Assembly: GCA_039794345.1 (NCBI GenBank)
Contig: JBDIVQ010000002.1
Span: forward strand, 6,558 to 70,557
From: Phycisphaerae bacterium
Lineage (GTDB): Bacteria > Planctomycetota > Phycisphaerae > Phycisphaerales > UBA5793
Length of the DNA stretch: 64,000 nucleotides
Direction of reading: 5' to 3'
Shown here: piece by piece, positions 33,084 through 64,000 of the stretch
How positions within the stretch are numbered: position 1 is the stretch's first letter
How the letters are laid out: every line of letters starts with the position of its first letter
Made by a program: the position numbers and the translations under genes
Notes under the pieces: generated by a model
The model's database searches: none
The model's input: the letters and a program-made list of their open reading frames with translations, nothing else
What the model was told of the DNA's origin: nothing

Positions 33084-33525
33084 CGCGATCATGCTCAGCG
33101 GGACTCGGCTGGCAGGCAACAGGGATTGCATCGAGGACTTGCGATGCGCACCTCGGGCTCAGATTCGGTGCAACAAATGAGCTGCGCGCCACCTGTCCAT
33201 CGTGCGCACGAGGCGCTGCTTCTCGTGTTCGTGTCTACCCGTGTAACGACTTCGCGCCCACCCCTCCCCATCCGCAATCCCTGAGCCTTTCATCCGTCCG
33301 TACCTGACGGATGGACCATGCACTTCCACCTCTGGGTGACCCCGGCCGACTCGTGATCGAGTTGCGCTTTGTCCCTGCGCCTGATCTGGATGACGCGGTG
33401 CAGGAGGCGTGGCTGGCGCACTTGGAGGGGCGACCCGTCGCCACGGCGGTGAACACGTACGCCCAGCGGCAACGCCGGTGGCGCAAACGTATGGCGGTAC
33501 TAATCGACTTCTACGAGGATCAGGG

Positions 33526-33726
33526 ATGGCTGAGTCCGACATCGAGCAGGCGATCAAACAGAGCGCCCAAGGCCCCGCCAAAGCGCAAGGCGACTCGGGC
33601 AGCGTCGAGCAGCACGGCCTCGCGGAGCAGATCGAGGCGGACCGCTACCTCGAGAGCAAGAAGGCGAGCCGGGGCAAGGGGCTGAATGTGAAGTTCGTGC
33701 AACTGGAGCCGCCGGGTACGGCGTGA
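33526..33726 (+). CDS. small head-module protein preceding the portal
   Basis: MAESDIEQAIKQSAQGPAKAQGDSGSVEQHGLAEQIEADRYLESKKASRGKGLNVKFVQLEPPGTA. Very high third-position GC. Overlaps the portal start. Confidence 0.55.
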   Translation: MAESDIEQAIKQSAQGPAKAQGDSGSVEQHGLAEQIEADRYLESKKASRGKGLNVKFVQLEPPGTA

Positions 33727-44404: not shown

Positions 44405-44406
44405 CA

Positions 44407-46208: not shown

Positions 46209-46360
46209 GGCAGCCCATCGATGCCGACCGGGTGCTTAGAGTTGCTGGCACGCTCGCGGGCTCACGCGACGACAAGTTGTTCGACGAATCGATGGCGCGA
46301 TGGAGCAGCGACTCCACTCAGTTGAGTGTCGCGACTTGGATGTGTCACGTTGGCTGCGAA

Positions 46361-47158
46361 TCAGGCTCGAGCAAGCACTCCGCTCTCGCGCAAACCCTCA
46401 AAGTAGGAAACGAGCCGCTCCACATGTGGCCGATAACTGACGAGAATACCCGCTTCGATGTTGCGGTGCTGTGCCGCGTCCGTGAAGTTCGCTGACGTGA
46501 TGAGCGCGACTGTTCGATCGACCACGATGCACTTTGCATGGAGGCTCGCCCTAACATGCGAGGCGGGCAGGAGCGAACGAACGTCGTAGTGAAGGGCCGG
46601 GCGTGGAGTCCAGGGCCATTGCCGGGCAAAGAAGTCTTCCGTGAATCGCTGGACAATCTGCTCCGGGAGTGAAGTGTCCGTTGGCCGCCGCGGAATGTCA
46701 AGGCAGAACCAGACCCGAAGGCTTGGATGCTCTGCAACCCGTTCTGCGAGGCGTTTGAAGAGTTCACCGCCTCCGTGCACTGCGTATCCGACGAGAAGCA
46801 CCTCTGTGTGAGCACCGACAAAGAGTTCATTCATCACCGCAAACGTATCGCGCGTTGCGACTCCGTCAACGTGAGGTCCGGATAGCACGAGCTCAAACAG
46901 TGAATCGGGAGCGTCGGTCGCTTCTCGTGTGGTCGCCACATGCTCGAACAGCGTGGCGATCTGTTCAAGTGACCAGCCAGATCTCGATAGCCCTTGGATA
47001 AAGTCCTCTGCGTGCTTCTGCCCAGAGGTGCCGAGCACCTGTCTCAGGGTGTGCGCAGGGACTGCGCCCGACGGCAATGATTGACGGCACAGCGCCGCCA
47101 GCTGCCTGAGGCTCGCAGGTGTGGTGGCTTTGATGAGAGAGATGCCATCGGGGGTCAC
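46361..47158 (-). CDS. drmC: DISARM DrmC, PLD-family nuclease
   Basis: HAKCIVVDRTVALITSANFTDAA is the HxK(x)4D PLD motif. The GTG start has a GTGA overlap with drmB. Confidence 0.85.
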   Translation of the reverse strand: MTPDGISLIKATTPASLRQLAALCRQSLPSGAVPAHTLRQVLGTSGQKHAEDFIQGLSRSGWSLEQIATLFEHVATTREATDAPDSLFELVLSGPHVDGVATRDTFAVMNELFVGAHTEVLLVGYAVHGGGELFKRLAERVAEHPSLRVWFCLDIPRRPTDTSLPEQIVQRFTEDFFARQWPWTPRPALHYDVRSLLPASHVRASLHAKCIVVDRTVALITSANFTDAAQHRNIEAGILVSYRPHVERLVSYFEGLRESGVLARA

Positions 47159-48945
47159 GTGAAGAACTCCGCGTTCAGCAACTCGACCGTAGGTACCACC
47201 AGAGCTCTGTCGAGAAAGTCATTGTGCTGCTCACAGCACGTCTCGGCGATCAGTACGCACCCATGACAGGCGCTTCCCTGCAAGGGCTGGTGGTCGTGTC
47301 GATCAGGCACATGGAACGCGCACACAGGATCGTTAGAGCACAGGCGTGCTTGATCGAGCGCTCGCTTCATGTGGTGCTTGATGCGACGGCCAGCGGCCAC
47401 AAGTCCACCGAGTGTTCCCTCTGCATCGCTCGATCCAGTGTACAGGAGGATACCGTACTGGCCGGCGCTAGGGCGGCAATAGATGCGCTCGCGCAACGAA
47501 GACGACGGATACCCGCATTCTAGTGAGATGGCGGTGATTAGGAGGTGGGCCAAAGTGTGGAGCATGAAGTAAGTGGTGCCCGGAAACACCCGTGTACTCC
47601 CCTCGTGTTCGTCGAGCCACACCTTGAACCCGACCTGGAGCGCGCGGTCCCTCTGCTGAACAGGATCTCGATAAGTCCATTCGGCTATCGCGGCGGGGTT
47701 GAACTGGAGAAAGATACCCTCGCCACGATTTTCGATCGCGGGCAGCCATGAAGTGTCAATGGCAAGGGGCGCTCGTTGGACATCGATCGACAGCTCGCCG
47801 TCGATGTCTGGACCGGCGGCCTCGAATCTCGTGAAGCCCACCTGTGCGACGACCTCGCGCAGCCGGTGCACGAGCACAACCCGATCAATGCCTTGCATCT
47901 GCGGGGAGTGCCACGCAGCCACTGGGAGCGTGCGTGCGTAGAAATCGCCTTCTGGTTGATCAGACCCGAGTTCATCGCGAGTAGTGCTCAGGGCCTCGAA
48001 CTCCGCCTCCTTGACTGGTCGGGTGTCGGAAGCCTGCCCCTCACGGATCCGTCGTATCGCCGCCATGATGTCGTCTTCAGCAAACTCCTTCAGTTGCGCG
48101 GAAACGAGCGGCTTCCTGAGCTCGTATCTCAGCTCCTCGATGGACTCGACGGCGGCTAGGTGAGCATCCCACAGTGTCCGCACCGCCTCGTCCACCGTCG
48201 CGTGTGCCTCAGGAATGGAGATGACGGCCAACAACTGAGGAAAGTAGGCGTTGCTCGCGCTCCTGATGAGCAAGCGGCTTGGAACCCCGCAGCGCTCCTT
48301 CGTGAGCGGACCAAGCCAGGGGCGTGACCCGTCGCAGCTACCAAGAGCCTTCAGGTCGCGTTGAGCGGCTTGAGCCATCCGACGTTCCGCGCCGCATCCA
48401 CACCGCACCCAGACAGAATCGAGGTCGCCGGTCGTGCCTCGCTCTTCGAGATACATCTCGCGTGCACAGGCATCCCCTTCGCCATGAACGAAGGCGCGCC
48501 AGTCGATGTCTCCAACATGGCCTCGCTCGCAAGCGCGGACGAAGCGCACCGGGACGACGGACTGCTTCTTGCCGTCACTGTCCGTACAGCGCCCCTTTTC
48601 AAGATCATTCCACTTGACGAGTCGCCGCGCACGATGGCCCCGGGGTGTCATCTCCGCCTTCTGTACAATGAACCACTCAGGAAAGCGGTAAGTGGTAATG
48701 TCGGGCGTAAACCCTTTGTCCTCTATCGCGGGAGGCGGCTTACGAAGCGTCAATCCCTGTACCTGCAGCAACTCCTCGAGCTTGTGGACCAGTCGTGGCT
48801 CTGAGATCGTGGGCAGAGCTGTGTTCCTGCTGTATCGCCATCCTTCGAGGCCGCCGATAATGACGGCGTGGTCCGGTAAGTCCACCATGGCCCCCGGACC
48901 GAATGTGGTGATGAGCTGGCTGGAGCGGATTTGGGGCTTCGCCAT
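47155..48945 (-). CDS. drmB: DISARM DrmB, DUF1998 protein
   Basis: 596 aa. C-terminal Cys cluster ...QGSACHGCVLIAETCCEQHNDFLDRALVV typical of DUF1998/MrfA zinc-binding domains. TAATG overlap with drmA. Confidence 0.8.
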   Translation of the reverse strand: MAKPQIRSSQLITTFGPGAMVDLPDHAVIIGGLEGWRYSRNTALPTISEPRLVHKLEELLQVQGLTLRKPPPAIEDKGFTPDITTYRFPEWFIVQKAEMTPRGHRARRLVKWNDLEKGRCTDSDGKKQSVVPVRFVRACERGHVGDIDWRAFVHGEGDACAREMYLEERGTTGDLDSVWVRCGCGAERRMAQAAQRDLKALGSCDGSRPWLGPLTKERCGVPSRLLIRSASNAYFPQLLAVISIPEAHATVDEAVRTLWDAHLAAVESIEELRYELRKPLVSAQLKEFAEDDIMAAIRRIREGQASDTRPVKEAEFEALSTTRDELGSDQPEGDFYARTLPVAAWHSPQMQGIDRVVLVHRLREVVAQVGFTRFEAAGPDIDGELSIDVQRAPLAIDTSWLPAIENRGEGIFLQFNPAAIAEWTYRDPVQQRDRALQVGFKVWLDEHEGSTRVFPGTTYFMLHTLAHLLITAISLECGYPSSSLRERIYCRPSAGQYGILLYTGSSDAEGTLGGLVAAGRRIKHHMKRALDQARLCSNDPVCAFHVPDRHDHQPLQGSACHGCVLIAETCCEQHNDFLDRALVVPTVELLNAEFFT

Positions 48946-51900
48946 TACTCATCCCCCCAATCCCTCAAGCCCTTAACGATCAGGTCTACATTGGCCTCGA
49001 CATCTCGCATTGAGCGATTGGCGCGAAATCGCTGGTGGATTGGGGGCAAGCTATCCAGGTCTGGGTCAAGGAAGTCGTAGATGAGGCGCCGGAATGACCC
49101 GGCCTGCTCCTTCTGGTATTGCATTCGTGCACCCTCATACTGAGCGCGATCGGCGAGCCGCACCCAGTCGTCGAGAAGCTGCTGGCAGCGGTCGAGCACC
49201 TTGGTGGCGAGTTGGTTCGCGTCCGCGGGGGAGAGCTCACCGTCATGCGCTCTGGCTCGTTCTGCGATCCGAATCGCGAATGCATCGAGCTGAGAGCGTA
49301 CCGCCAGCACGGCCTGTGCGCCCGCAGCGGGAGTCAGCGTAGCGTTGCCCTGCCTGCAAAGGCCGATCAGGGCAGCGGCAAGGGCTCGATCCAACGCTCG
49401 CGGGGAGAACGGCGTGACACTCGTCGCCTCCACGCTCCGGTAGAATGTCTCATGGAACGCTGTGAATCGCTCGTAGTGCGATCGATCGCGGGGCTTGTGG
49501 ATGTTGAGAAGAGCGGCCACGAGTCCGGGCCTCTCCGGATCACGACCCACTCGGCTGGTGGCTTGGATGTACTCGGCACTGGTCTTGGGCTGGCCGAGCA
49601 CGACCATGAGGCCGAGGCGAATGATGTCTAGGCCGACCGAGATCATGTTGGTCGCCAGAGCGACATCGACATGCTCGTCGCTCCTGAATGGCAGCGCGAG
49701 GCGGCGTTTGGCCTCGGCAACCTTGTCGGTGGATACACGGGAGGTCAGCTCCACAACCTCGTAGTCAATGGTCCTGTCGGCGAAGAGCCGATCCTCCGGT
49801 TCGCGACGGCGTCGGCGACCGTACTCAATGAGCCGAGTACGAACCTCGTCCTCAATGATGCGACGGCTTCCACCCAACTCGCGGAGGGAGTTAAAGTACC
49901 CTAGCACGGTCATGTATGGGTCGGCCGGATTGGCCGGGTTCTGATTCCCGCCTGCTCGCATCCACGCATCCTGTGCTGCGCTCAAGAGCGCGAGCACCGC
50001 ACGGAGCATGACGACCTTGAGGCTGCGGCCCTGGGCAGCGATGCCGATGTATTCACGCGCGGGACTCTCTGTGGCGGGCAATGTTTCGGCGAAGAACGAG
50101 TCCTTTCGATCGGGCCCTGGGCAGGGGAAGACCTTTGTCCGCAAGTAGCCGAAGAGCGCTCGGATCTGGCTGTCCGCACGGCGCACGGTGGCCGTGCTGG
50201 CGATGATCTTGGGCGGCAGAGTAAGGCCGTCGACCTCTAGGCTCGCGAGCGCACCGATCGCGCTTTCGTAGAGGCCCGCGATGGTCCCGAGCGGGCCCGA
50301 GATCAGGTGCAATTCGTCCTGGATGATGAGGTCGGGCGGGAGGAGTGCTCCACTCGGCAAGGGCGTTCCCTTGCCGGGGTCACAGGGTCCGTAGAAGCCA
50401 TTCGCGTCGTATCGGTTCACCTTGCCAAACAGCGTGCCGGTGTGTCCGGTCCACGGTAATGCCGCGAACTTGTCGACGGTCGCGATGATGAAACACGGGA
50501 GGCGACGGTACAACGGCTCGTCGATCGCGACGATCGGAAGGTATCGGTCACCAGTAAACGGGCATCGGTGGTTCGCGCAGTGCACAAGGAGATCTGTTGG
50601 TGCCCTCAGGTTGGGTGACAATCGGAAGGAGTTGCGCGTGAACTTCGTACCGCACCATGGGCACTCTTCGAGTGGAATCGGGGAAGGCTGCCGGTCATCC
50701 TTGAGGAACCGCGTGGTCTTGGTGTAGGCCGTGTACTCTCGATGAGAGCTTTTGTCGCCCTGGTGGCCCATTCGGTTCGGTGTTGCCGCCTGGCCAACCC
50801 AAAGCCCGATCTCGAATGGCCACTCTCCCAGCGCTGGCTTGTTCGCCTCGCGCTCGAATTCCAGTGCGCAGATCAGTGCCGCAGCGCGACCGAGCTGGTC
50901 GAGCGTGAGCAGCCGCAGCGTGTACCGCATCAGCACACTTACACCCGCGCCTTGGATTCCGGGGTTGCGCAATCGACGAAGCACGAGCGTGAATGCGGCC
51001 AGACCCAGATATGCCTCGGTCTTGCCACCGCCGGTGGGAAAGAACAGGAGGTCCACAACCGCCCGGTCGTCATGCCGCGGGTCAACGATGCCGGGAAGCG
51101 TCATCAGGATGAACGCGATCTGAAACGGGTGCCACTTCGGGGCCGTCACCTTGTCCGGCGTTGAACTCTGCTGGATGGCGAAGCGTTGTCTCGCGGCCCG
51201 TGCCATGGCACGGTTGGCAGTAGCGAACGCCTGCAGGACCTGAGGATCCTTAAGTAGTGCGATTCCTGCCTCGATGCGATCCGATGCGATGCGCGCTTCC
51301 GCGAGCATGTCCTGTGCCGTCTGTCGATGGGCGCGTGACAGTGAGGTCAAGACCGTTTGCTGCTGCGCGATCCACGCCCTGTAGTGAGTCACCAGCGGGC
51401 TCAGTTTGGAGGCGGCGTCGGCTGCGTTCGTCAGGCTGCCGAGCGATTCCATGCCAAGCTCGACATCGAGAATCGCCGCCGGAGCGACACGTTCAACCTG
51501 CGCCGTGGGGATCCATGTCGTCCGAACCGTCCGGCAAGTCTGCTCTGTCTTGACTTCCTCTGCTGAGACGCCGTGCCCAACGGCGTACTCATACGCATCG
51601 CGATACTGGAGATCCGCGATGCGGTGGTCCCATTCGTCGGCGACATCGCTGCCGCGAGGGTCCGGCCGTGGCACAAATCCGGGGCTGCAGTGGAGCGTCA
51701 ATCGCACCTGGAACACGAACGCCTTGTACGCCGGTTCGGTCTGACTGCGGAAGTTGACGACAAAGATCGATACTGCCCTCGTCGCGGCGGGCAAGCCGGC
51801 GACACCCGCATCTCTGCTTGTCACGATGAGCCGGATTCCTCCGCTGCCCGGAACATCTACGTCTGCGGGCCTCGAACCCGGCGGCGGAATGGGCACAGCA

Positions 51901-52460
51901 ATGGTGTGCGACTGCGGCGTCCGACGCCAGCCCTTCTTCGCCGGCTTGCCTGCCTCTTCCGCATCGACGGCCGACTCGCCCGCGAGTTCGCCGGCCCCTG
52001 GGCCGAGGCTCCGTTGCGCCGCGGCATCATCGCCTTCGCCGGCCGCGGGCTCGCCTTTCCCCTCCGGATCCTCGAAGGCGTAGTCGCCCCAGTCGATATC
52101 CGCCTTGATCGAATCGACCCTGCCGGGGACGAGCACACTGAGCCCCATGGAACTGGGCAGGAGACTGCGGCGGGCCGCTGACTTCTCGGGATCGGCGCCA
52201 TCATCCAGACCGCCTGGCTCTGCGGGTGAGTCAATCTCCTCCGTCGAGGTCGCGTCGAATCGCTGGACGACATCCGCGGACGCGGGCGTGAGGAAACCAG
52301 TGAGATACCACCGCGTGGGCGGTTCCGGCAGCAACTCGTTGGCGAACGCGTGGTCGTTCGTCGGTCCGACGAGATCAAGGCGAAGTGCCTCGACCAGCGT
52401 CGATCGCACCTCGACACTCGTTGCAGGCAGTTGCGTCTCACTCGGCTGTAGATTCCCCAT
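48945..52460 (-). CDS. drmA: DISARM DrmA, DEAD/DEAH-type helicase
   Basis: Motif I (LLFFPTGGGKTEAYLGLAAF) and motif II (LIIQDELHLISGPLG). C-terminal helicase motifs (ATNMISVGLDIIRLGLMVV, QATSRVGR). 1171 aa. Confidence 0.85.
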   Translation of the reverse strand: MGNLQPSETQLPATSVEVRSTLVEALRLDLVGPTNDHAFANELLPEPPTRWYLTGFLTPASADVVQRFDATSTEEIDSPAEPGGLDDGADPEKSAARRSLLPSSMGLSVLVPGRVDSIKADIDWGDYAFEDPEGKGEPAAGEGDDAAAQRSLGPGAGELAGESAVDAEEAGKPAKKGWRRTPQSHTIAVPIPPPGSRPADVDVPGSGGIRLIVTSRDAGVAGLPAATRAVSIFVVNFRSQTEPAYKAFVFQVRLTLHCSPGFVPRPDPRGSDVADEWDHRIADLQYRDAYEYAVGHGVSAEEVKTEQTCRTVRTTWIPTAQVERVAPAAILDVELGMESLGSLTNAADAASKLSPLVTHYRAWIAQQQTVLTSLSRAHRQTAQDMLAEARIASDRIEAGIALLKDPQVLQAFATANRAMARAARQRFAIQQSSTPDKVTAPKWHPFQIAFILMTLPGIVDPRHDDRAVVDLLFFPTGGGKTEAYLGLAAFTLVLRRLRNPGIQGAGVSVLMRYTLRLLTLDQLGRAAALICALEFEREANKPALGEWPFEIGLWVGQAATPNRMGHQGDKSSHREYTAYTKTTRFLKDDRQPSPIPLEECPWCGTKFTRNSFRLSPNLRAPTDLLVHCANHRCPFTGDRYLPIVAIDEPLYRRLPCFIIATVDKFAALPWTGHTGTLFGKVNRYDANGFYGPCDPGKGTPLPSGALLPPDLIIQDELHLISGPLGTIAGLYESAIGALASLEVDGLTLPPKIIASTATVRRADSQIRALFGYLRTKVFPCPGPDRKDSFFAETLPATESPAREYIGIAAQGRSLKVVMLRAVLALLSAAQDAWMRAGGNQNPANPADPYMTVLGYFNSLRELGGSRRIIEDEVRTRLIEYGRRRRREPEDRLFADRTIDYEVVELTSRVSTDKVAEAKRRLALPFRSDEHVDVALATNMISVGLDIIRLGLMVVLGQPKTSAEYIQATSRVGRDPERPGLVAALLNIHKPRDRSHYERFTAFHETFYRSVEATSVTPFSPRALDRALAAALIGLCRQGNATLTPAAGAQAVLAVRSQLDAFAIRIAERARAHDGELSPADANQLATKVLDRCQQLLDDWVRLADRAQYEGARMQYQKEQAGSFRRLIYDFLDPDLDSLPPIHQRFRANRSMRDVEANVDLIVKGLRDWGDE

Positions 52461-52475
52461 CGCACCCCACGTCGC

Positions 52476-52655
52476 TCAGTCCTTCTTGACCACAACCGCT
52501 TTGCCACCGAGAAGCTTCTGCTTCCACACAGGCCACTGCTCAACCTGTGCGCTTGCCTTCTTCAAGTGCGTCACAAGGGCTGCCCGGGATTGCTGCACTT
52601 TGACAGCCTGCTGGCATTTACCCTTGGGGTCACTGGTCTGAATCCGTGTGGTCAT
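52476..52655 (-). CDS. 59-aa lysine-rich protein overlapping the deaminase 3' end
   Basis: ATG 52655 is preceded by AGGAGG embedded in the deaminase coding sequence. MTTRIQTSDPKGKCQQAVKVQQSRAALVTHLKKASAQVEQWPVWKQKLLGGKAVVVKKD. The stop lies 15 nt before the drmA start. Confidence 0.5.
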   Translation of the reverse strand: MTTRIQTSDPKGKCQQAVKVQQSRAALVTHLKKASAQVEQWPVWKQKLLGGKAVVVKKD

Positions 52656-54147
52656 TGTGCTCCTCCTGACGGGCTTTATCAAACATGTTACTGGCGATCA
52701 GCTCGAGGTCCAAGTACGATGCAGGCAGCATTTGGAGCCTCAAAGTGCCGTTCTCTGGCCTCCACTTCAGAGCTGCCCCATCCAGATTCTTTCGGTTGAG
52801 ACGCCTCCCAGAGCCCAATCTGAGCGAGAACAGGTCGAAGAACCGACGCGGGCCGACGCCGACGAACGGCTCAAAGTGTACGCGCTCGACATCGCCCTCG
52901 GATGCTTCAGCTGACAGCCCGATACAGATCGAGTCCTGGTGAAACTCGCCTGCCTTCGACTTCACATACGGCTCGATGAAGACCACTCGTTCAATACCAG
53001 CTGCCACAATGTGCTTTGCACAGTTGTGACATGGAAAGGTGGTCGAGTACAGCGTCCCGCCCGAAACGGGGATGCCTGCTCGTGCGCATGCGAGCAGCGC
53101 ATCCATCTCAGCATGAACGACTCGGCCGTACTCAGTCAGATCGCGAATCCGACTTTCCTCCAGTACGGTTCGCACCTTCTCGGCTTCGAGACCATGCTCC
53201 GCACTTCGGGAGACGATGTCATCGATGATCCGGTTCTGCTCGACCTTGTTCGAATCACTCCCCCTCGCGAAGTCCCGGCCGTCGCTCGGAAAGCCAACGT
53301 CTTCAGGCATCTTGTCCGTCGCCGGCCAGTACTGACCGCCGAGAGCCTTCGGGCAGTCATTCGCGCCCGTTGCCACAACCTGCTCACCCACATTGATCAC
53401 TGCACCAACCTGCGGCGACAAATCCGCTGATCGCAACGACGCAGCGAACGCCAGGAACATGCAGAATTCATCTAGCGTCGGCGTCACGTACGGATGGCCA
53501 AACAGCAGCGCCAGCAGTCGCCAGATACTTCGCTTCAGCCGATCTTCGTCACCATCAATACGAAGGAAGAAATCAGATAGGTGAAATGTATCCGTCACAC
53601 GCTGACCATGGTCAAGATGCTCATCAGCATCACGTTCGATCAGTTTCTTCGCATTCTCTTCTGAAAGCCGCTTGTCGCTCTTCAGGTATTCCAGTCGCCG
53701 CTGTTCATTGGCGTGAACGCCCACCAGGTAGAACCCCTGCGGGTAGATAGCCCGAAGCCGCTCCACCTCCTCTGGGTGCTTGAGTGAACTCACGATGTAA
53801 GCGCGCTTGGGGCGAGGCTCCGCCTTGCCATCCTCGCCTTCCGCTCGGCCCTTACTGATGACGCTCGCAACTCCCAATGCCAGAATGGAGTTGTCCCCTG
53901 AGTTGAGCCTCGCTTCATTGCCTGCATCCATCAACGAGGAGATGCGTTGGAATTCATCGTTCTCGTCCCACTTCTCGGGCTCGACAAGAAGTGGGATGAT
54001 GTGTTCCGTGACTCGAATGAGTTCGACGTCGTAGCCGATGATTTTCAGGCGATTCTCAAGCGCATCGCGCACCTTGCCAAGTTCTGTCCCCACAGCACCG
54101 ATCAATCCAATGACCAGTTCCGACTCTGCATAGGCGTCTTCAAGCAT
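52630..54147 (-). CDS. AvcD-like antiphage deoxycytidylate deaminase (N-terminal kinase-like domain plus a dCMP/dCTP deaminase domain)
   Basis: Zinc deaminase motifs HAEMDALLACARAG and PCHNCAKHIVAAGIERVVF, plus SPQVGAVI. N-terminal LVIGLIGAVGTELGKV is a P-loop-like start. 505 aa. Confidence 0.8.
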   Translation of the reverse strand: MLEDAYAESELVIGLIGAVGTELGKVRDALENRLKIIGYDVELIRVTEHIIPLLVEPEKWDENDEFQRISSLMDAGNEARLNSGDNSILALGVASVISKGRAEGEDGKAEPRPKRAYIVSSLKHPEEVERLRAIYPQGFYLVGVHANEQRRLEYLKSDKRLSEENAKKLIERDADEHLDHGQRVTDTFHLSDFFLRIDGDEDRLKRSIWRLLALLFGHPYVTPTLDEFCMFLAFAASLRSADLSPQVGAVINVGEQVVATGANDCPKALGGQYWPATDKMPEDVGFPSDGRDFARGSDSNKVEQNRIIDDIVSRSAEHGLEAEKVRTVLEESRIRDLTEYGRVVHAEMDALLACARAGIPVSGGTLYSTTFPCHNCAKHIVAAGIERVVFIEPYVKSKAGEFHQDSICIGLSAEASEGDVERVHFEPFVGVGPRRFFDLFSLRLGSGRRLNRKNLDGAALKWRPENGTLRLQMLPASYLDLELIASNMFDKARQEEHNDHTDSDQ

Positions 54148-54216
54148 CGTCCTGCTCCGATTGCGCAGCGATCCCCAGTTGTATACGATACGGCAAGAGC
54201 CCGTGGTGGCTGGGCT

Positions 54217-56127: not shown

Positions 56128-59100
56128 CGTCCACCTCCACCGGCCAGGCGCGCTTCAGTGCTTCGCCTTCCCTGAACAGCGCTGCCGCCTCCTTCGCCAT
56201 GTCCGCGTGCTCTGGTTTCGTGAGCGTGATGCGTTGATCGGTTCGGGTCACGACTCCGCCGTCCGAAAGCGTCGCGTAGCCCATTGCCGTGAGCGACTGC
56301 CAGAGCTGTTTGAGCGACCCCAGGGGATCCTGCGTGCTGTTGGCTGCCGTGGCGCTGCCATCCGCGTACAACTCGCGAGCTCGCTGGTTTACCGCCAGAA
56401 TGAACATCCGCTCGGCTGCGACCTGCCGGACTCGCGCGGGCGCGAGTTCGTCAAGGATCGCCACCATCAGCTCGACGGCCTCCAGCATCGGAACCGGCTC
56501 GACTTCGAACCCGCCTGCTGGCGCCTTGAACAGGTCTGGGACGGACGCCGCGACTTTCTTACGACCCCGCTTCGCTGCCTTCGGTTTCTTCTCCGCCGCC
56601 TCCGCGGCCAGGCCTGTTCGGCGTTCCTCCTCGGCGCGCTGCTTGTTCAGTTCCAGCAGGCGGGCGAGGACCTCGTCGCGGGTCTCCTCGGGCCAGCGGC
56701 AGCGCCAGGCGAGGCGCTTGCGGGACGGTGGCAGCTTGGCGGCGAACGCCAGGGCCTCGGCCGCGGTGGGCCACCAGAGTTGCTCGGGGACTTCGAGGTC
56801 CGGCGGCAGGTCGTCATCCTCGATGTCGAGGTAGTCGAGGCCGAAGCCGCAGACGGGGTGGATGTCGGTCCAGTCGTAGGCGTCGAGCACGGCGCGGTCC
56901 ATGGCATCGTGCAACTCGCGCAGCTTGAGGATGTCCGCGTCGCCCTCGGCCGGGTCGTGGAAGCGGTTGTAGGTCGCGGTGAGCCCCTCGTTGTTGCGGA
57001 CCATCAGATCGGCACGAAACTCGTAGTACGCCTGGCCCGCCGCCTCCATCCGCGGATTCGTCTCGAAGCCCGCGGGGAGTGGGTAGGTCTCAAAGCAGTC
57101 TGTCGGGGTGTAGCGGAGATCGTCTTTCATGGACGAGGCAAAGAACCGTGCCCACGCTTCGTGAGGCTGGCACTGCAACGTGCAAAACGCCCCCCATGCG
57201 TCAAACGCCAGAACCACGAGCGTATTGGCGAACACCATGGCAGGCGGAAGCATCGCAAAACTCATGTGCGGCGTCGCGCCGCAGTTGATGACGAGCACTC
57301 GAGGGAGGCCGACGATGGCGGCGTAGAGTTCGCCACGAGGACGCAGGTAGAGCCACCAGTTCTCCTTACCCCACTTGTCTTTCTGGGCCAGCCTTTCGGG
57401 CTTGACCCGTTCCTCTACAAGAGCCAACAACTCAGGCCAGCGACGATGAACCTCTGCCTTGCTCAACAAGCCAAAGTTGATCGCATAGCGGCTGTGCGCC
57501 AGTGATGGATCGTTGTTGACTTCCTCTCCGCCGATGTATGGATAGATCGCGTGCTGGTTGTCAGGACGTGCCCTAATCAGAGCTTCCATCTCCGTCAGAG
57601 AAGAAGCAGCACCGCGGCCGCCCAGGCCGTCGAAGGTGAAGCCCATGCCCAAGATAATGACGCCTTGAAAACTCTTCCCCGCGTTTGCTTGCAGGACTTC
57701 GGGGTTGTCGTGAGTGCCGGCGTGGAAAAGATACGCAGAGATCATCGGCACGGGCCGTCCATCGAGTTCGAACGGGCCGGGTAGCTCACCCTTGTGTATG
57801 TGGACGACGCTGACCACGACGGCGGCCTGCCCGGGCCACTTGTAGCGGCGCCGGGCGGCGTAAATCGTGCCACCATGCGTGCAGATCCAACGCAGCCCGG
57901 TAGTGCGGGTATCGCCCTGACCGATGGTGTTGGTCGCGATGAGCCCGAAGCACCCGCACGGGCGGAGCAGGTTGAACCCGCGCCGGAAGAAGTGGGCTAC
58001 GAGATCGGCGTTTCCATGTGCTTCTTCATGCAGTGCCTGCAACCAGTCCAGGTAGTGCTCGCGGTTGCTATTGATCAGCGTGTTCTTGCCTGCAAAGGGT
58101 GGATTGCCGACGATCGCATCGAACCCCGAATCATCGCGGCCGAACACTTCGGGGAACTCGATTTCCCAGTGAAACGGCGCCACCGGTTGCTGACCACCGC
58201 GCAAGTGGCTAAGGGTTGCCTGAATGTTGGTGAAAGCCTTCGCATCGGTCCGCTGCTTCCAAGCCGCGAGCAGGCCGAGGTACTCGTCGCGCGTCTCCTT
58301 CCGCTCCCTGGGCTTGGACCCGTCGAAGAACGACGCGACGCACAGGTCGCCCGCGAGCCGCGCCGGCTCCAGCGCCTCATCCGCGACGGCCAACTTCTGC
58401 GCCTTGTTCGCAGGCGGCATGTCATCGCCCGCGGCGAGGATCTGGCGGCGTTCTCGCAACGCCCTGTCCATCTGCTCCGCGAGCTTGCCCTGCACAAAAG
58501 TCGGCTCGCCCGTGCCCTCCAGGTTGAAGTGGGCGATCTGCTTGCGCGTCAGGCCCACGAGCGAATCGCCCGTGCGAAGCGAGTGGTCGAGGAAGGTGAA
58601 CGGGTGGTCCTTGGCGAGCGTGGCCAGCCAGAGGGAGAGTTTGGCGAGGTCGGTCGCCATCGGGTTCTTATCGACGCCGTAGAGGCAGCGCTGGGCGATG
58701 AGGCGGCGGGCGTAGAGCAGTTCATCCTCATCGGCGGGGATGCGCGGCTTGTAGCCGTGGTGCGCCCACGAGGCGACGAGCTGATCCGCGAGTTGGCGGC
58801 AGGCCTCGACGAGGAACGCGCCCGAGCCCATGGCCGGGTCGCAGACCTTCAGGTCGAGGATCTGGTCGGGCTCGGGGTGCTCGCCGAGTTGCTTGAGGAT
58901 CGGCTCCAAGGCCTTGCGGACGATCGGCTCGGTGAGCGAGCGCGGTGTGTAGTGCGAGCCGGTCTTGCGGCGCTCGTCGGTCGGGACCAGCACCATCGTG
59001 CCAGCAGATACCGGCTGCGGCGTGGCGTTGCGGGCGATGCGGCGTTCGAGCGCGGCGAGCAAATCATCGATGGCGGCGGCATCCTTCACGGCCGCGGTCA

Positions 59101-60556
59101 TGGTGCTGGTGAGCTTGTAGTCGGTTTGGTCCTGGATGGCCTTGGCGCGGTCGGCGGGCTTGGTCTTGAGGAGTTCATCGAGGTCGACCGGCACGGGGGC
59201 ACCGTGAGCCTTGGCGGCCTTGAGGGCGATGGTGGCGCCGGTGGCCCGCTCCAGGCGGAAGCCCATCATGGTCTCGTAGACCGAGCCGATCTGCTCGACA
59301 TCGAGCGTGCGGTAGGAGAGCCGCTGGCCGTCGAGCAGGAGGAGCTTGCGGAGGACGCGCTCGATGGTGCCGTCGGGCACGAGGGGGAGCTTCTTGTCGG
59401 GGAGCGTCTGCCCTTCGAGGAACGGGTAGCGGTCGGGGTCGAAGAGGTGCCCCTCGCGGGCTGGCATTGCAAGGAGCGGGTGCTGGCACCCGAAGAAGAC
59501 GGCGCGGCAGAGGGCGATGATCTGCGGCCACGCGCCGTAGCGGTGGTCCATCGTGTCGGGGTTCTGCTCCGCATCGGTGCGGAGCCGCTCGAAGAGGCCG
59601 TGGATGGAGTAGTTGCGGACGTAGAGGTCGGAGGTGGGCATCAGGCCGCGGTCTTCGGCGTAGAGCAGGAAGACGAGGCGCATGAGGACGGTGAGCAGGC
59701 CCTGGTAGATGGAGTCCGGCTGGTCTTTGAGGACGGACATGAGCAGCTCGGCGTGGGCGCGCTCATCGGCGGCCTGAAAGCCGCGGAGGAGTTCGTAGAG
59801 GGCGTCGAGGACCTGTTGGGCGAGGGTGTTGGAGACGCGGGCCTGGTAGTCCCGGCTGCGCTTGAGGAGCGCGGGGAGGCGCGCTTCGGTGGGTGCCGAG
59901 AGCAGGCGCTCGCGGCTAAGGAGCATCTCGAAGGCCGCGACGATGGGGCGACCCGCGGTCTCGACCATGGCCGCGACGGGGAAGGTGACTGTGCCAGTGT
60001 TCTCGCCGCGGGGCGCGTAGACGAGGCGGAAGTGCGTCGGTGTGGTGAGCAGACCGATGGACACCTCGGCCTCGCGGAGGAGACGCTCGAAGCGGCGGGT
60101 GTGGGAAGCGGTCCAGCCGGAGAGTTCGGAGTCGCGCTGGGCGTCGAGGTCCGTGCCGAGCGGGAGTTCCTGGATGAGAAGCATCCACGGGCGTTCGGGG
60201 TCGGCGGGCTTGGGCGGGACGAAGGCGTAGGTGGGTTCGAGGGTTTCGCCGAACTCCTTGAGCGGGATCTTCAGGGCCTCGGGGATGGGGTGCTCAGGCG
60301 TGGCGCCGATGATGCAGTCGTCGGGCCACTCAAGGAACTCTCGGAGGATGCCGAGTGTCGAGCGGATGATGGGGTAGGGCTTCTCGCGGTCGCCGGCTTC
60401 GGTGACCCGTTCAAGAAAGCGTTGCTGCAAAGGGGCGGCGTTGCGATTGGTCGCCACCTGTGCATCGGCGAGCGCAGCCGGCGACACGACCAGGCCATCG
60501 GGCTGGAGGTACCCGATCCACGTCTGGTGGTCGCGGATGATGGGGTCAACCGCCAT
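56105..60556 (-). CDS. drmMI: DISARM DrmMI, large N6-adenine DNA methyltransferase
   Basis: HYTPRSLTEPIV, motif I (VCDPAMGSGAFLVEA) and motif IV (AIVGNPPFAG). 1483 aa. TGATG overlap with drmD. Confidence 0.85.
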   Translation of the reverse strand: MAVDPIIRDHQTWIGYLQPDGLVVSPAALADAQVATNRNAAPLQQRFLERVTEAGDREKPYPIIRSTLGILREFLEWPDDCIIGATPEHPIPEALKIPLKEFGETLEPTYAFVPPKPADPERPWMLLIQELPLGTDLDAQRDSELSGWTASHTRRFERLLREAEVSIGLLTTPTHFRLVYAPRGENTGTVTFPVAAMVETAGRPIVAAFEMLLSRERLLSAPTEARLPALLKRSRDYQARVSNTLAQQVLDALYELLRGFQAADERAHAELLMSVLKDQPDSIYQGLLTVLMRLVFLLYAEDRGLMPTSDLYVRNYSIHGLFERLRTDAEQNPDTMDHRYGAWPQIIALCRAVFFGCQHPLLAMPAREGHLFDPDRYPFLEGQTLPDKKLPLVPDGTIERVLRKLLLLDGQRLSYRTLDVEQIGSVYETMMGFRLERATGATIALKAAKAHGAPVPVDLDELLKTKPADRAKAIQDQTDYKLTSTMTAAVKDAAAIDDLLAALERRIARNATPQPVSAGTMVLVPTDERRKTGSHYTPRSLTEPIVRKALEPILKQLGEHPEPDQILDLKVCDPAMGSGAFLVEACRQLADQLVASWAHHGYKPRIPADEDELLYARRLIAQRCLYGVDKNPMATDLAKLSLWLATLAKDHPFTFLDHSLRTGDSLVGLTRKQIAHFNLEGTGEPTFVQGKLAEQMDRALRERRQILAAGDDMPPANKAQKLAVADEALEPARLAGDLCVASFFDGSKPRERKETRDEYLGLLAAWKQRTDAKAFTNIQATLSHLRGGQQPVAPFHWEIEFPEVFGRDDSGFDAIVGNPPFAGKNTLINSNREHYLDWLQALHEEAHGNADLVAHFFRRGFNLLRPCGCFGLIATNTIGQGDTRTTGLRWICTHGGTIYAARRRYKWPGQAAVVVSVVHIHKGELPGPFELDGRPVPMISAYLFHAGTHDNPEVLQANAGKSFQGVIILGMGFTFDGLGGRGAASSLTEMEALIRARPDNQHAIYPYIGGEEVNNDPSLAHSRYAINFGLLSKAEVHRRWPELLALVEERVKPERLAQKDKWGKENWWLYLRPRGELYAAIVGLPRVLVINCGATPHMSFAMLPPAMVFANTLVVLAFDAWGAFCTLQCQPHEAWARFFASSMKDDLRYTPTDCFETYPLPAGFETNPRMEAAGQAYYEFRADLMVRNNEGLTATYNRFHDPAEGDADILKLRELHDAMDRAVLDAYDWTDIHPVCGFGLDYLDIEDDDLPPDLEVPEQLWWPTAAEALAFAAKLPPSRKRLAWRCRWPEETRDEVLARLLELNKQRAEEERRTGLAAEAAEKKPKAAKRGRKKVAASVPDLFKAPAGGFEVEPVPMLEAVELMVAILDELAPARVRQVAAERMFILAVNQRARELYADGSATAANSTQDPLGSLKQLWQSLTAMGYATLSDGGVVTRTDQRITLTKPEHADMAKEAAALFREGEALKRAWPVEVDDVQYIVP

Positions 60557-63500
60557 CAGGCGCCCTCCGGGATGAGGTAGACGATGCCCAGGGGCTCGAT
60601 GCGGGCTGACGCAACGGTGTAGAAGCTCACGATGCGTGCGGGCTCTCGCTCCAGGTCGTCCTCCACGTTGTCAATCCATCGCTGCCAGTAGCGGCGATTG
60701 GACTCGTAGGTGCGCTTCTCATCGTCTGTCGTGAAGAGTTTGAGCTGGGAGTCGGCTGACTTGCCAAGTTCGGACTCGATGCGCTTCTTCTGGTCTTCGA
60801 GGATCCGGCGCATCTCCTTGGACTCGGCCTCGCCGCGTTCCTGGAGTTTCGCCTCGGCTTCGGCGCGGGCGGCGTCGCCGCGGCCCTGGATGAAGGGGAG
60901 GAGTTCGTCGAGGTCGCGGGGGAGGGAGGCGAGGTATCTCGCCGCGGCGACTTCGGGCAGGCCGCGTTGCGCACCGGGCTTCAACGCGGTGGTGAGCAGC
61001 TCGACCGTGCGGGCTTCGGCTTCGCGGGCGTACGGCTTGAGAGGTTCGTGCCGGGCTGAAGGGTCTTGCCAACGGGCGGTGACGGTGAGCACTTCTTCGT
61101 GAAGGCGGCTGGCGCCTGGGCCATAGAGCGAGAGCCGTCCGAGGAGCACGACTCGGGGCACATTGTCAGAACTCTGCGCGATGCACGCGCGCGAAAGGTC
61201 GTGGTGCACGAACCCTTGGGCAAGGAAGCGGCCGAGGAGCCGCTGCGCGATGCGATGTTGCAGGTGGACCTGGACGATGCTGTCGTCGATGCCCTTGGGC
61301 GGCTCGAAGACGATCGGCCTGATCGGGGCTTCGCGACGCCAGGAGAAGTCGCGCTTGCCGTTCTCGGGAAGGCTTCTGAGCGTGTCGAGCGTGGGCGCCC
61401 AGGTCGGGTCGCCGCCCTTCTTCGCGTCGAGCCGGGGGAAGATGTAGCGGCCGGAGCCCGGGGGGTCCTCGACGAGCGGCTCGGCCTTGTTGATCTCCAG
61501 CGCGCACGAGAGGGCGTCGCGGAAGGATTCTTCGTCGAACGCGATCCACTTGCGAGCGTCATCGACTCGTCGGTCGAGGCCCGCGATCTGCTCGCGAAGG
61601 TCATCCTGTCGGAGCCGTGCTGCTTCGAGTTCCTCTTCCGTTGTCGCCTGCTTCTCCGGGTCGAGACTGGCGCTGTCGATCGCCCCGGCCATTCGGGCGG
61701 CGTCGGCATGGCGGATGCCGTGCTTGAGCGTGTCAGCGAGCCGCGATTCGAGCACCTGCGAGAGACTCCCGAGTTCCTCGCGGATGGTCTTCGTCTTCCG
61801 CACGAGGGCCTGGAGGACGCGGTCCTCCGGTCGCTGGAGGTAGACGAAGTAGTGGCAGTACACATTGTCAGAGGGCTGTAGCTTCCGGTCGATGCGGCCG
61901 TTGCGCTGCTCAAGGCGGCTGGGGTTCCACGGTACGTCAATGTGGAACAGGTTGTGGCAGTGGGCCTGGAGGTTGAGACCCTCGCGAGCGGCATCGGTGG
62001 CGATCAGAATCCGCACGGGGTGCTCGTCGGGCGGGGCGTTGAAGGCACGCTTGATCTGCTCGCGCTTGTTCGGCGGGGTAGGGCCGTGAAACACTTCAAT
62101 GCGCTCATCTGCTCGGTCGGTGCCGGCGACCGCCGCGCGCAGACAATTGAGGACGTACCGCTTCGTATCCTCGTACTCGGTGAAGAGGATGACGCGGAGG
62201 TCCGTCCACCCTGCACCTCGCGACGGCTCACGCTCGCCGGGCAGGCGGAGCCCGGCACACATCTTCTCTCGCATCCACTGGATCAGGTGCCGGATGCGTG
62301 CATCCGGCAGGCCGCGTTGCTGCTCGGCGATCTGCTCCATGCGTTCGAGAAGTTGCTTCTCGCGATTACGGTCCGCACGGGTCTGGTCGCCGGTCGTGGC
62401 TTCGGTGGCGGCCTCGAACTGGTTGTCTTCCAGGGCTGAGAACTCTTCCTCGGTCAGTGCGGCCCGGTCGTCGTCGCTGTCGATGCCGCTACCAAGAAGG
62501 TCGGCGTCCTCGGCTGCAGCACTGCGGTCGGAAGCGGCGGGGAGTGAAGCCTGTTCTCGCTCCCAGATACGCTCCATCGTCTTGCGGTGGACCCGGAGCG
62601 TCTTCGCGAACGCCTCGACCGAGGAAAGCAGCCGCTGCTGAAGCCCGGAGATCAGAAGCCCTGCGGCGGCCTGCTTGCGCTTGCTCTCTCCCTCAACCCG
62701 TCGTGCGCGAACCTCGCGGTATTCGTTGAGAAAGCGGGAGAGTTCGAGTTCGGGTGCATCCTCGGGCAAGCCCTTGATGTCAACCTGCACGACATGCCGT
62801 TCGGGAAAGCCCCCGGCGACGGTGCGCAGGTCATCCTTGAGGCGGCGGACCATCACGTCGTCGAGGTTGCTCTTGAGCACTTTGACGCCGCGGCAGAATC
62901 GTTGCGAGTCGAGGATCTCCAGCAGGGCGCTGAAGCTGTTCGAGTGGCCATTGTGAGGCGTCGCCGAGAGGAATAGTCGATGTTCGAAGCGTGGGGCAAG
63001 GTCTCGAATGGCACGAGTGATTCGTGAATCGATGGCGTACTTCGCACCGCTGGATGGCGCGGCATGGTGGGCTTCGTCGAGAATCAGCATCGATCCCGGA
63101 CGCAGATTGTCGAGCCAGTCGCGTAGCGGGGCGGCGTACGTTTCGTCGATCAGCAGGCGGTGGGACACGAGAAACCGTGGAAAAGTCGTCCACGGGTTGA
63201 CCCCGAATCCTCGCTCCTCGCGCACACGCTCGACATACTCACGGTCGAGGATCTCGAACACCAGTCCGAAACGAGCCTCCAGCTCATCCTTCCACTGCGG
63301 CAGCATGGAGGGCGGGCAGGCGACAACGATGTCCCGGATGCGCTTGCGGAGCAGCAACTCCATCGCGATGAGGCCCGCCTCAATGGTCTTCCCCAGGCCA
63401 ACGTCGTCGGCGATGAATATGTTGACGCGAGGAAGCCGGAGGGCCTTCCGCAGCGGTTCGAGCTGGTACGCGTCGATTCGGATTCCTGCACGGAAGGGAG

Positions 63501-63924
63501 ATTGAAAGAGCAGCCGGTCTGTCGCGGTTACGCAGTTCCAGCGGATCGAGTTGACGTACGCGGCGAAGAGGCGCGGGGTGTCGAAGCCGCGCTCGCCGAT
63601 CGACTTCCAAGTGTCGTCGCCGACCACTTCACGGTCGATTTCGAGCTCCCAGAGCGCATCGAGTACTTGCCCTTGCGCGTCGTCGTCTAGACACGCGAGT
63701 TGCAGGTGTGCCCCACCAATGCCCGCCTTAGCGCGCTCCACGAGATATGTCCGAGTCCTGACGCGAACCACATCGCCCACTCGCGGTGTATCCGACTTGA
63801 CTTCACGCGTTTGCGGACTCACATGTCCCTCCGCCGGCCCCCAGTCAGAGAACTCGCGCGAACCCTCACAAGTCGAGTGCCCATACGGGTCAGACTGGCC
63901 AGTCTCGGTGTCCGACCCTGCCAC
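60556..63924 (-). CDS. drmD: DISARM DrmD, SNF2-family helicase
   Basis: IADDVGLGKTIEAG (motif I), MLILDEAHHAAP (motif II), LSATPHNGHSNSF, ILIATDAAREGLNLQ and HIDVPWNPSRLEQRNGRIDRKLQ. 1122 aa. Confidence 0.85.
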   Translation of the reverse strand: MAGSDTETGQSDPYGHSTCEGSREFSDWGPAEGHVSPQTREVKSDTPRVGDVVRVRTRTYLVERAKAGIGGAHLQLACLDDDAQGQVLDALWELEIDREVVGDDTWKSIGERGFDTPRLFAAYVNSIRWNCVTATDRLLFQSPFRAGIRIDAYQLEPLRKALRLPRVNIFIADDVGLGKTIEAGLIAMELLLRKRIRDIVVACPPSMLPQWKDELEARFGLVFEILDREYVERVREERGFGVNPWTTFPRFLVSHRLLIDETYAAPLRDWLDNLRPGSMLILDEAHHAAPSSGAKYAIDSRITRAIRDLAPRFEHRLFLSATPHNGHSNSFSALLEILDSQRFCRGVKVLKSNLDDVMVRRLKDDLRTVAGGFPERHVVQVDIKGLPEDAPELELSRFLNEYREVRARRVEGESKRKQAAAGLLISGLQQRLLSSVEAFAKTLRVHRKTMERIWEREQASLPAASDRSAAAEDADLLGSGIDSDDDRAALTEEEFSALEDNQFEAATEATTGDQTRADRNREKQLLERMEQIAEQQRGLPDARIRHLIQWMREKMCAGLRLPGEREPSRGAGWTDLRVILFTEYEDTKRYVLNCLRAAVAGTDRADERIEVFHGPTPPNKREQIKRAFNAPPDEHPVRILIATDAAREGLNLQAHCHNLFHIDVPWNPSRLEQRNGRIDRKLQPSDNVYCHYFVYLQRPEDRVLQALVRKTKTIREELGSLSQVLESRLADTLKHGIRHADAARMAGAIDSASLDPEKQATTEEELEAARLRQDDLREQIAGLDRRVDDARKWIAFDEESFRDALSCALEINKAEPLVEDPPGSGRYIFPRLDAKKGGDPTWAPTLDTLRSLPENGKRDFSWRREAPIRPIVFEPPKGIDDSIVQVHLQHRIAQRLLGRFLAQGFVHHDLSRACIAQSSDNVPRVVLLGRLSLYGPGASRLHEEVLTVTARWQDPSARHEPLKPYAREAEARTVELLTTALKPGAQRGLPEVAAARYLASLPRDLDELLPFIQGRGDAARAEAEAKLQERGEAESKEMRRILEDQKKRIESELGKSADSQLKLFTTDDEKRTYESNRRYWQRWIDNVEDDLEREPARIVSFYTVASARIEPLGIVYLIPEGA

Positions 63925-64000
63925 ATCGCTTTTCAGTTTAGGCGGAAGGAGCGTGGGGTTTGGGAGGAGTAGCCCGCATCGGCCGAACTAGGCTCTCACT

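Follow-up and report, generated by a model that had tools for sequence, protein, structure and literature searches.

DISARM systems restrict unmethylated incoming DNA. The operon described here lies in 64,000 nucleotides (nt) of DNA from a Phycisphaerae bacterium (assembly GCA_039794345.1, contig JBDIVQ010000002.1, positions 6,558 to 70,557; this whole stretch is called the window below), and shares with the described class 1 DISARM systems (Ofir et al. 2018; Serratia, bioRxiv 10.1101/2021.12.28.474362) the five signature genes, their order, their common strand and their overlapping junctions. It differs from them in that the methylase DrmMI continues for ~150 amino acids (aa), a C-terminal linker and domain, beyond its PADLOC profile, and in that 3.6 kb of extra genes separate drmMI from drmA. 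These encode a coiled-coil ATP-binding cassette (ABC) ATPase resembling LmuB, an AvcD-type anti-phage dCTP deaminase and a microprotein of 59 aa. With a probability of roughly 0.7, we read the operon as three evolutionarily separable layers, namely a DISARM core, an autonomous deaminase cassette and an LmuB-like module docked on the methylase.

Defence genes embedded inside DISARM, BREX, Hma and type I restriction-modification (R-M) systems have already been published (Payne et al., bioRxiv 10.1101/2024.01.29.577857). As in the window, the embedded genes are co-directional and nested between core genes, and ABC-ATPase-based systems and GmrSD are frequent among them. The deaminase cassette behaves exactly like such cargo and is also found non-embedded elsewhere, which holds only weakly for the ATPase (four loci, with a separate adaptor). 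The dCTP deaminase is not mentioned in that paper, nor is any embedded ATPase with a partner domain fused in frame to a host methylase or HsdS.

For the ATPase, the comparison is with Lamassu, in which LmuB and LmuC hold the effector and sense DNA ends, LmuC being encoded directly before LmuB and reported to resemble helix-turn-helix (HTH) proteins (10.1101/2025.04.02.646746). The window ATPase shares the LmuB/YydD fold, the length of short LmuB (~600 aa) and a pair of Cys at the apex of its coiled coil; as in Lamassu, the sequence just ahead of its gene encodes a small protein or domain, and free-standing operons of its family (effector-like gene, adaptor, ATPase) match the Lamassu order LmuA-LmuC-LmuB. 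However, the LmuA position is here held by a DNA methyltransferase or HsdS and not by a toxin, no neighbour in the window matches the PADLOC LmuA model with its conserved LmuB-binding C-terminal domain, the PADLOC LmuC models do not detect the adaptor, and the sequence likeness to LmuB is weak. The ATPase works like Lamassu but cannot be filed as Lamassu, because there is no LmuA and the equivalence of the adaptor to LmuC is putative.

A precedent for an ABC ATPase as R-M guard is PrrC-EcoprrI, where the ATPase sits inside an R-M locus and presumably contacts the DNA-recognition subunits (bioRxiv 10.1101/2024.01.29.577857). PrrC is an ABC-ATPase anticodon nuclease held latent by its type I R-M host; it has its own nuclease domain and no coiled coil, whereas the window ATPase is without an effector domain (AlphaFold2 model, Pfam) and its contact would run via a domain fused to the host protein. 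Hma superficially presents the same triad of SNF2 helicase, methylase and ATPase with embedded cargo. Membership in Hma was rejected: HmaC is a DUF499 (BrxC-like) protein and HmaB an m5C methylase (PMC12839542), the window ATPase gave no PADLOC Hma match, and the window methylase is, unlike HmaB, of the N6-adenine, Eco57I/MmeI type (Pfam).

The ATPase and the adaptor domain encoded before it

The AlphaFold2 model of the ATPase, built with 20 homologues (mean predicted local distance difference test score, pLDDT, 88.5), has a split ABC head whose halves are joined by a ~260-residue antiparallel coiled coil. Foldseek against the PDB ranked Bacillus subtilis YydD first (9a6c, E = 3e-17), followed by LmuB chains (9uxh_F, 4e-15; 9hqu, 8e-14; 9nyg, 2e-11; also 9hqx) and then by SMC and Rad50 heads. 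The PADLOC LmuB model matched weakly (3e-14) but near full length; no Pfam or NCBIfam family matched, no sequence match to the solved LmuB proteins was found, and a profile search of PDB sequences gave spurious repeat or coiled-coil matches. Invariant in the alignment are G67-K68-T69 of the P-loop, D568 of Walker B and the pair C361/C368 at the apex of the coiled coil. The family is, judging by 684 cluster representatives at E < 1e-30 in an exhaustive profile search, real but small; a word-index search returned 44 matches, as against more than 5400 homologues for the deaminase. The apex motif C-x6-C-P (residues 361-368), invariant in 20 of 20 aligned homologues, recalls the zinc hook of Rad50 and LmuB with a different spacing, and Lamassu LmuB variants have a zinc hook at this apex position (10.1101/2025.04.02.646746).

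Forty-eight ATPase loci were compared, 39 from a scan with one genome per species, almost all of them Planctomycetota, and nine from homologue look-ups. Wherever the sequence reaches far enough upstream, another open reading frame (ORF) immediately precedes the ATPase gene; the two overlap by 14-26 nt in most cases, and the preceding ORF ends in the adaptor domain, whether the host is DrmMI, an ARMADA-like methylase, HsdS or a free protein. Ten of the loci are class 1 DISARM operons with the ATPase in the drmMI-drmA slot. In nine, the ATPase is preceded by a YprA-like helicase, an SNF2 helicase and a PglX-like methylase, a layout recently named ARMADA type I (PMC12458937), and in 14, on shorter contigs, it stands behind an SNF2 helicase and a methylase or behind a methylase alone. 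Three further copies lie behind hsdS of type I R-M systems. Finally, four loci from Planctomycetaceae (L017, L021, L023 and L024) hold a three-gene operon amid housekeeping genes, with no methylase or HsdS gene nearby, in which a conserved GNAT-like protein of 204 aa precedes a free adaptor of 184-214 aa (184 aa in L017) and the ATPase. The GNAT assignment reflects a weak Pfam match. The gene order is that of Lamassu, yet no Lamassu model matched, and the operon could be a stand-alone ancestor or a derivative of the methylase-docked module. Degenerate ATPase remnants are present at L038 and L039.

Whatever the host protein, the last ~130-150 residues of the ORF before the ATPase form a conserved domain. 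In the window, the PADLOC DrmMI profile (1347 positions) covers residues 8-1332 (E = 0) and stops ~150 residues short of the C-terminus, and in the HsdS proteins of L028 and L035 (611-621 aa) the specificity profiles stop near residue 470-480. The HsdS-fused adaptor of L035 and the methylase-fused adaptor of L005 are 62% identical, which indicates that the domain has moved between host proteins. DrmMI of both ATPase-less DISARM loci checked, L049 (1336 aa) and L053, is of canonical length and lacks the extension. The window extension matched no Pfam, PADLOC (even at E = 10, LmuC models included) or NCBIfam family; a search of PDB sequences with the adaptor gave spurious repeat or coiled-coil matches only, and a profile search of 5.8 billion proteins returned only three fragments, a limit of the word index. 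Aligned with hhalign, the window extension and the other adaptors share 106 colinear columns (P = 5e-5, probability 67%), and the adaptor of L003 bridges the two groups, matching one profile at E = 1e-9 and the other with 15 bits.

The extension and the ATPase follow a course of their own relative to the host. In the DISARM locus L002, the host core proteins are 32-38% identical to those of the window, the extension 57% and the ATPase 60%; in the ARMADA-like locus L045, the values are 34% for the methylase, 60% for the extension and 67% for the ATPase. Four DISARM loci with host cores 48-59% identical (L016, L018, L019 and L037) have ATPases of 28-30% identity and an extension without BLAST match, and L049 and L053, with host cores 52-63% identical, have neither extension nor ATPase. 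Wherever the ATPase is 60-83% identical, the extension is 57-75% identical, even with a methylase core at 33-34%. By these comparisons adaptor and ATPase vary with each other and not with the DISARM core, which points to the extension plus ATPase, grafted onto the methylase 3' end, as the unit of inheritance. Since three host proteins unrelated to one another (DrmMI, PglX-like methylases and HsdS) carry the fusion in frame, the ATPase would be expected to work physically with the methylation or recognition subunit, and it appears to be docked onto the methylase via the fused adaptor.

Diverged second copies of the DrmMI tail (residues ~1160-1320) occur in three loci (Table 1). Those of L018 and L037 are located after the ATPase and the first cargo gene, and that of L039 close behind drmMI, before the degenerate ATPase remnant is reached. 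All three appear to be relics left when recombination replaced the drmMI 3' end; none was found downstream of the cargo in the window.

In the ORF list and translations of the window, eight tightly packed minus-strand ORFs fill 46361-63924 in the order drmD-drmMI-(three inserted genes)-drmA-drmB-drmC (Table 1). Protein families were assigned with PADLOC, Pfam and NCBIfam, and the operon structure was deduced from gene overlaps. The core junctions are overlapping stop and start codons, TGATG for drmD/drmMI, TAATG for drmA/drmB and GTGA for drmB/drmC. The ATPase ATG sits 23 nt inside drmMI, with GGAGG upstream of it, the first 26 nt of the 59-aa ORF are shared with the deaminase 3' end, a 15-nt gap parts the small ORF from drmA, and the 69-nt spacer between ATPase and deaminase is the sole non-overlapping junction longer than 15 nt. 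A promoter and terminator scan of the operon, spacer included, gave no signal above background. Pfam assigns Eco57I, MmeI_Mtase and MmeI_TRD to the DrmMI core. With the DrmABC core and the class-specific DrmD and DrmMI all co-directional, the locus is a class 1 DISARM. An earlier note, made from the sequence alone, had given this gene content, strand and order, the junction codons, the positions of the three extra co-directional genes, the 23-nt overlap and the 15-nt gap, all of which stand; the 26-nt overlap is an added detail. Its description of a coiled-coil ABC-like ATPase next to an AvcD-like deaminase is likewise borne out, by the model and its YydD and LmuB matches for the former and by the family assignments for the latter.

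Table 1. Coordinates of features in the window and in the loci compared with it
Feature	Locus	Position	Strand	Evidence or remark
drmD, SNF2-type helicase, 1122 aa	window	60556-63924	-	PADLOC DrmD E = 0; Pfam SNF2-rel_dom, Helicase_C
drmMI, whole gene, 1483 aa	window	56105-60556	-	PADLOC DrmMI E = 0
drmMI core, N6-adenine methyltransferase with MmeI/Eco57I-like target recognition domain, residues ~1-1330	window	56567-60556	-	
C-terminal extension of DrmMI, Lys/Ala-rich linker and ~125-aa adaptor domain	window	56108-56566	-	
LmuB/YydD-like coiled-coil ABC (SMC/Rad50-type) ATPase, 636 aa	window	54217-56127	-	
Spacer between ATPase and deaminase, 69 nt	window	54148-54216	-	read from sequence
AvcD-type anti-phage dCTP deaminase, 505 aa	window	52630-54147	-	NCBIfam NF041025; PADLOC dCTPase 7e-164
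59-aa microprotein	window	ATG 52655 to stop 52476	-	AGGAGG 7 nt upstream of start
drmA, YprA-family helicase, 1171 aa	window	48945-52460	-	PADLOC DrmA 3e-283; Pfam Helicase_C
drmB, DUF1998/MZB protein, 596 aa	window	47155-48945	-	PADLOC DrmB 3e-85; Pfam MZB
drmC, PLD-family nuclease, 265 aa	window	46361-47158	-	PADLOC DrmC 1e-57; Pfam PLDc_2
Prophage-type genes	window	27848-37194	+	upstream of the DISARM operon
612-aa protein, trypsin-like peptidase domain and eight Sel1 repeats	window	30437-32275		between terminase and portal genes
tRNA-Asn(GTT) gene	window	2960-3034		single gene
CBASS-type 4TM effector	L002	11914-12804		PADLOC 2e-33; directly abuts ATPase stop
Ten cargo genes before drmA: IS21 (rve and IstB), GmrSD, AAA_15/AAA_21 pair, RelE/HTH pair	L041	12093-21423		ATPase 72% identical
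GNAT-like protein, free adaptor, ATPase	L017	8858-11938		likewise in L021, L023, L024
Second copy of DrmMI tail	L018	14493-14897		
Second copy of DrmMI tail	L037	13134-13250		
Second copy of DrmMI tail	L039	6881-7201		
DUF6946 insert at drmD-drmMI junction	L049	3193-3882		
PIN-containing pair at drmD-drmMI junction	L135	2695-3496		

The deaminase cassette and the cargo slot

The deaminase scores 467 bits against the NCBIfam equivalog NF041025 'anti-phage dCTP deaminase' (cut-off 400), is assigned to dCMP_cyt_deam_1 by Pfam and carries the zinc motifs HAE (VVHAEMDAL) and PCxxC (FPCHNCAKH), both invariant in the deaminase alignment. It thus shares family model and zinc motifs with the AvcID-type anti-phage dCTP deaminases (Hsueh et al. 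2022; Tal et al. 2022; PMC10511110), and AvcD-type enzymes deaminate dCTP/dCMP after transcription shut-off (PMC10511110). Where AvcID relies on a small RNA, AvcI, as antitoxin, the window clade instead has a conserved, translationally coupled downstream protein of 55-70 aa. An Rfam scan of 44000-64000, the 69-nt spacer included, gave no RNA family match, though AvcI is perhaps not in Rfam.

A further 80 deaminase loci, each with at least 200 nt downstream, were taken from a metagenome scan and searched with a hidden Markov model (HMM) seeded with the window microprotein. A homologue stands directly behind the deaminase in 45 of them, all close relatives included. These proteins are 55-70 aa long, often overlap the deaminase gene and occur in many unrelated neighbourhoods (loci L047-L131); their conserved core is F..HL..AS..V..WP.WK..LG, also given as F..HL..AS..V..WP.WKQ..LGG, with WP.WK invariant, and the microprotein has no PADLOC, Pfam or NCBIfam family. 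It is most likely a regulator or antitoxin of the deaminase and may be the protein counterpart of the AvcI RNA antitoxin.

The nearest relatives of the deaminase live in varied settings. One of 68% identity (P0047) adjoins KaiBC and histidine kinases, with a 66-aa ORF overlapping it on the downstream side, another (P0048) adjoins flagellin, and a third, of 65% identity (P0057), occupies the drmMI-drmA slot of a Planctomycetes DISARM operon without ATPase. The deaminase-microprotein pair stands in non-defence settings at L051 (KaiBC/histidine kinases) and L047 (flagellin). Only L049/L050 and L053 are DISARM-embedded among the deaminase loci, all without ATPase, and in L049 and L053 the pair sits in the same drmMI-drmA slot as in the window. 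Conversely, the deaminase was found at none of the 39 ATPase loci of the genome scan, the window's own duplicate aside. By its genomic distribution, the deaminase with the 59-aa ORF is an autonomous two-gene cassette, because the pair occurs without ATPase and without DISARM, because the closest homologues of the enzyme, stand-alone relatives included, have the same length, and because no other part of the operon is as low in G+C (56-57%, with 56.7% for the deaminase, compared to 63-66% for drmD, drmMI, the ATPase and drmA). The deaminase is probably independent of the ATPase.

The slot behind the ATPase is hypervariable across loci, and loci with an ATPase 60-86% identical to that of the window carry different cargo throughout: a single 302-aa protein without assignment (L044), two small proteins without assignment (L043), a 1644-aa SACS-like protein (L045), a Thoeris system (L001; ThsA 1e-171, ThsB 7e-48), the CBASS-type effector of L002 and the ten genes of L041, which show how large the cargo region can grow. 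No cyclase is found among the co-directional genes of L002, the next four genes of which are on the other strand. Behind distant ATPase homologues we found Drt1a (E = 0), a UG5-nitrilase reverse transcriptase, a retron III-A PRTase, an SoFic-like Fic protein, GmrSD and a class 3 lipase. The ThsA proteins of L001 and L006 are 73% identical and their ATPases 31%. No co-directional gene follows the ATPase in L035, L017, L023, L024 and L009, and no conserved small protein stands right behind the ATPase among the loci compared.

Given that the cargo includes complete known systems, varies among close ATPases and is absent in some loci, the slot between drmMI/ATPase and drmA looks like a cargo hotspot of the published embedding type (bioRxiv 10.1101/2024.01.29.577857), and these findings agree less well with effectors dedicated to the ATPase. 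The idea that the cargo proteins are LmuA-like effectors with an adaptor in common was rejected, as all-against-all BLAST gave no shared domain and many of them belong to complete autonomous systems (PADLOC). The drmD-drmMI junction, with its inserts in L049 and L135, is a second embedding site.

A proposed layered defence and its alternatives

On the three-layer reading, the class 1 core of DrmD, DrmMI, DrmA, DrmB and DrmC would restrict unmethylated incoming DNA as the first layer. The second, grafted on the drmMI 3' end, would comprise the adaptor behind its linker at the DrmMI C-terminus and the translationally coupled LmuB-like ATPase. Here the adaptor may act like LmuC or like the LmuA C-terminal domain and hold a dimer of the ATPase on the methylation subunit, which recognises the target. 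In this way the modification/recognition arm of DISARM would be physically joined to an SMC-type sensor of DNA or of inhibitors, and the ATPase may serve as guard or regulator of the methylation subunit. The AvcD-type deaminase and its 59-aa partner, placed in the hypervariable slot for cargo that separates the ATPase from drmA, make up the third layer; acting as AvcD and other dCTP deaminases do, the enzyme would deplete dCTP/dCMP once infection shuts off host transcription. Co-transcribed, presumably in one transcript, the three layers would amount to a layered defence and not to a single new machine.

Several observations weigh against this reading. The contact between the DrmMI extension and the ATPase is putative, and the AlphaFold2 model of the extension is unusable (pLDDT 43). 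For the homology of the window-clade adaptor to the others there are the hhalign match, the bridging sequence and the equivalent position; when the other adaptors were used as a plain HMM, the top match fell at the right site of DrmMI, with a non-significant score (E = 2.9). ATP hydrolysis is putative, as the Walker A sequence L-G-H-D-V-G-K-T is one residue off the canonical form and a Ser follows the Walker B Asp. The operon structure is drawn from the overlaps alone, the promoter scan being uninformative. Finally, at least one cargo gene precedes drmA in 12 of 12 DISARM-type loci with the ATPase, the 4TM effector of L002 stands bare behind the ATPase although such an effector would need some sensor, and the DrmMI-tail relics of L018 and L037 hint that the ATPase and the first downstream gene can move together.

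The last three points bear on a bolder possibility, which we regard as speculative and on balance unlikely, namely that adaptor and ATPase form a mobile docking module grafting an SMC-type sensor onto the target-recognition/methylation subunit in no fewer than three classes of methylation-based immunity (class 1 DISARM, ARMADA-like systems and type I R-M), as a guard that licenses the downstream defence gene, here the deaminase. Phage anti-restriction proteins that block the methylase or specificity subunit, or an encounter of that subunit with DNA ends, would make the ATPase fire. If this were true, the docking module would be a general plug-in that turns R-M-like systems into two-tier sensors with exchangeable outputs. 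The 12 of 12 cargo count, the two relics and the bare 4TM effector keep such a sensor-effector relation alive, as something between unlikely and improbable.

On a rival reading, the three inserted genes would be one unit within DISARM, a nucleotide-depletion arm in which the SMC-like ATPase senses infection and activates the deaminase, with the 59-aa protein as third component. The co-directional genes with their tight junctions invite this view, as do the resemblance of the ATPase to LmuB, which controls swappable effectors in Lamassu, the toxic-type gene downstream in every DISARM-type ATPase locus, the co-transfer suggested by the L018 and L037 tails, and the effector of L002. It is nevertheless improbable. 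Dozens of loci, two DISARM operons among them, have the deaminase and microprotein but lack the ATPase, and the enzyme has no extra domain compared with its stand-alone homologues; apart from a SIR2 domain in common, the downstream proteins do not match LmuA; ATPases 60-86% identical carry unrelated cargo, much of it complete (Thoeris, Drt1a, GmrSD); and some ATPase loci are without downstream cargo. Moreover, the junction between ATPase and deaminase is the only long gap of the operon. The proposal of the earlier note, that tight packing argues for an integrated composite, holds in part: the ATPase is tied to DISARM more tightly than had been noted, via a ~130-aa DrmMI extension that travels with it, whereas the three genes do not make up a single unit, with the deaminase and 59-aa ORF autonomous. 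That note had also considered that the genes might occur independently of DISARM under a promoter and terminator of their own; the deaminase pair does occur apart from DISARM in many loci, and no promoter or terminator signal of the operon rose above background.

The opposite extreme, three independent systems that merely share an operon, strikes us as no less improbable. The adaptor and ATPase would then be a self-contained Lamassu-like or degenerate element, the methylase 3' end a mere landing site and the fusion meaningless. Embedding is indeed common and a genomic-sink explanation has been proposed for it (10.1101/2024.01.29.577857), the adaptor stands free of methylases in L017, L021, L023 and L024, and ATPase remnants have decayed in L038 and L039. 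An incidental fusion, however, should often split into separate ORFs, which only a few loci do (L003, L016 and L018), and the in-frame fusion is found on three unrelated hosts and is kept over ATPase divergence to 27% identity. In the fused loci, the adaptor is found only on a methylase or HsdS, and the ATPase of L035 has no other visible partner.

Very improbable, lastly, is an ATPase that serves DrmMI methylation or target search and not infection sensing, as a core accessory of modification comparable to DndD or PbeC of the phosphorothioation systems. In its favour, the listed components of Dnd and Pbe include SMC-like ABC ATPases (bioRxiv 10.1101/2024.01.29.577857) and the ATPase is always attached to a methylation or specificity subunit, never to nuclease or helicase subunits. 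Against it, the closely related DISARM operons L049 and L053 make do with the core genes and no such ATPase, hosts whose methylases differ exchange the module, and its free-standing form pairs with a GNAT-like protein and not with a methylase.

Surroundings of the operon and significance

Upstream of the DISARM operon, the window holds prophage-type genes for a terminase large subunit (GpA_nuclease), a lambda-family portal protein and a Mu-gpT/Phage_capsid_4 major capsid protein, with a peptidase-Sel1 protein encoded between terminase and portal (Table 1). The ORFs from 37 to 46 kb gave no Pfam match. The operon may lie at the edge of a prophage or adjoin one, and the tRNA-Asn(GTT) gene is a possible integration site of the prophage-like element.

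The DISARM core, the dCTP deaminase and nesting in DISARM are all known, and the headline combination is by itself ordinary. The suggestion of the earlier note that a combination of this kind had not been described is accordingly weakened, with embedding in DISARM published and the deaminase cassette present in the same slot of L049 and L053. Absent from the literature searched is the recurrent in-frame adaptor fusion, on DrmMI, PglX-like methylases and HsdS, which is always followed by a translationally coupled LmuB-like ATPase. Full-text literature searches for LmuB- or SMC-like ATPases in association with DISARM, ARMADA or methylases returned no description of such a methylase-docked arrangement. 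A second, small lead is the conserved microprotein behind AvcD-type deaminases. If the docking is real, it would tie a methylation-based system to an SMC-type sensor in a concrete, physical way, and crosstalk between an embedded system and its host, as well as the guarding of R-M-like enzymes, would become directly testable.

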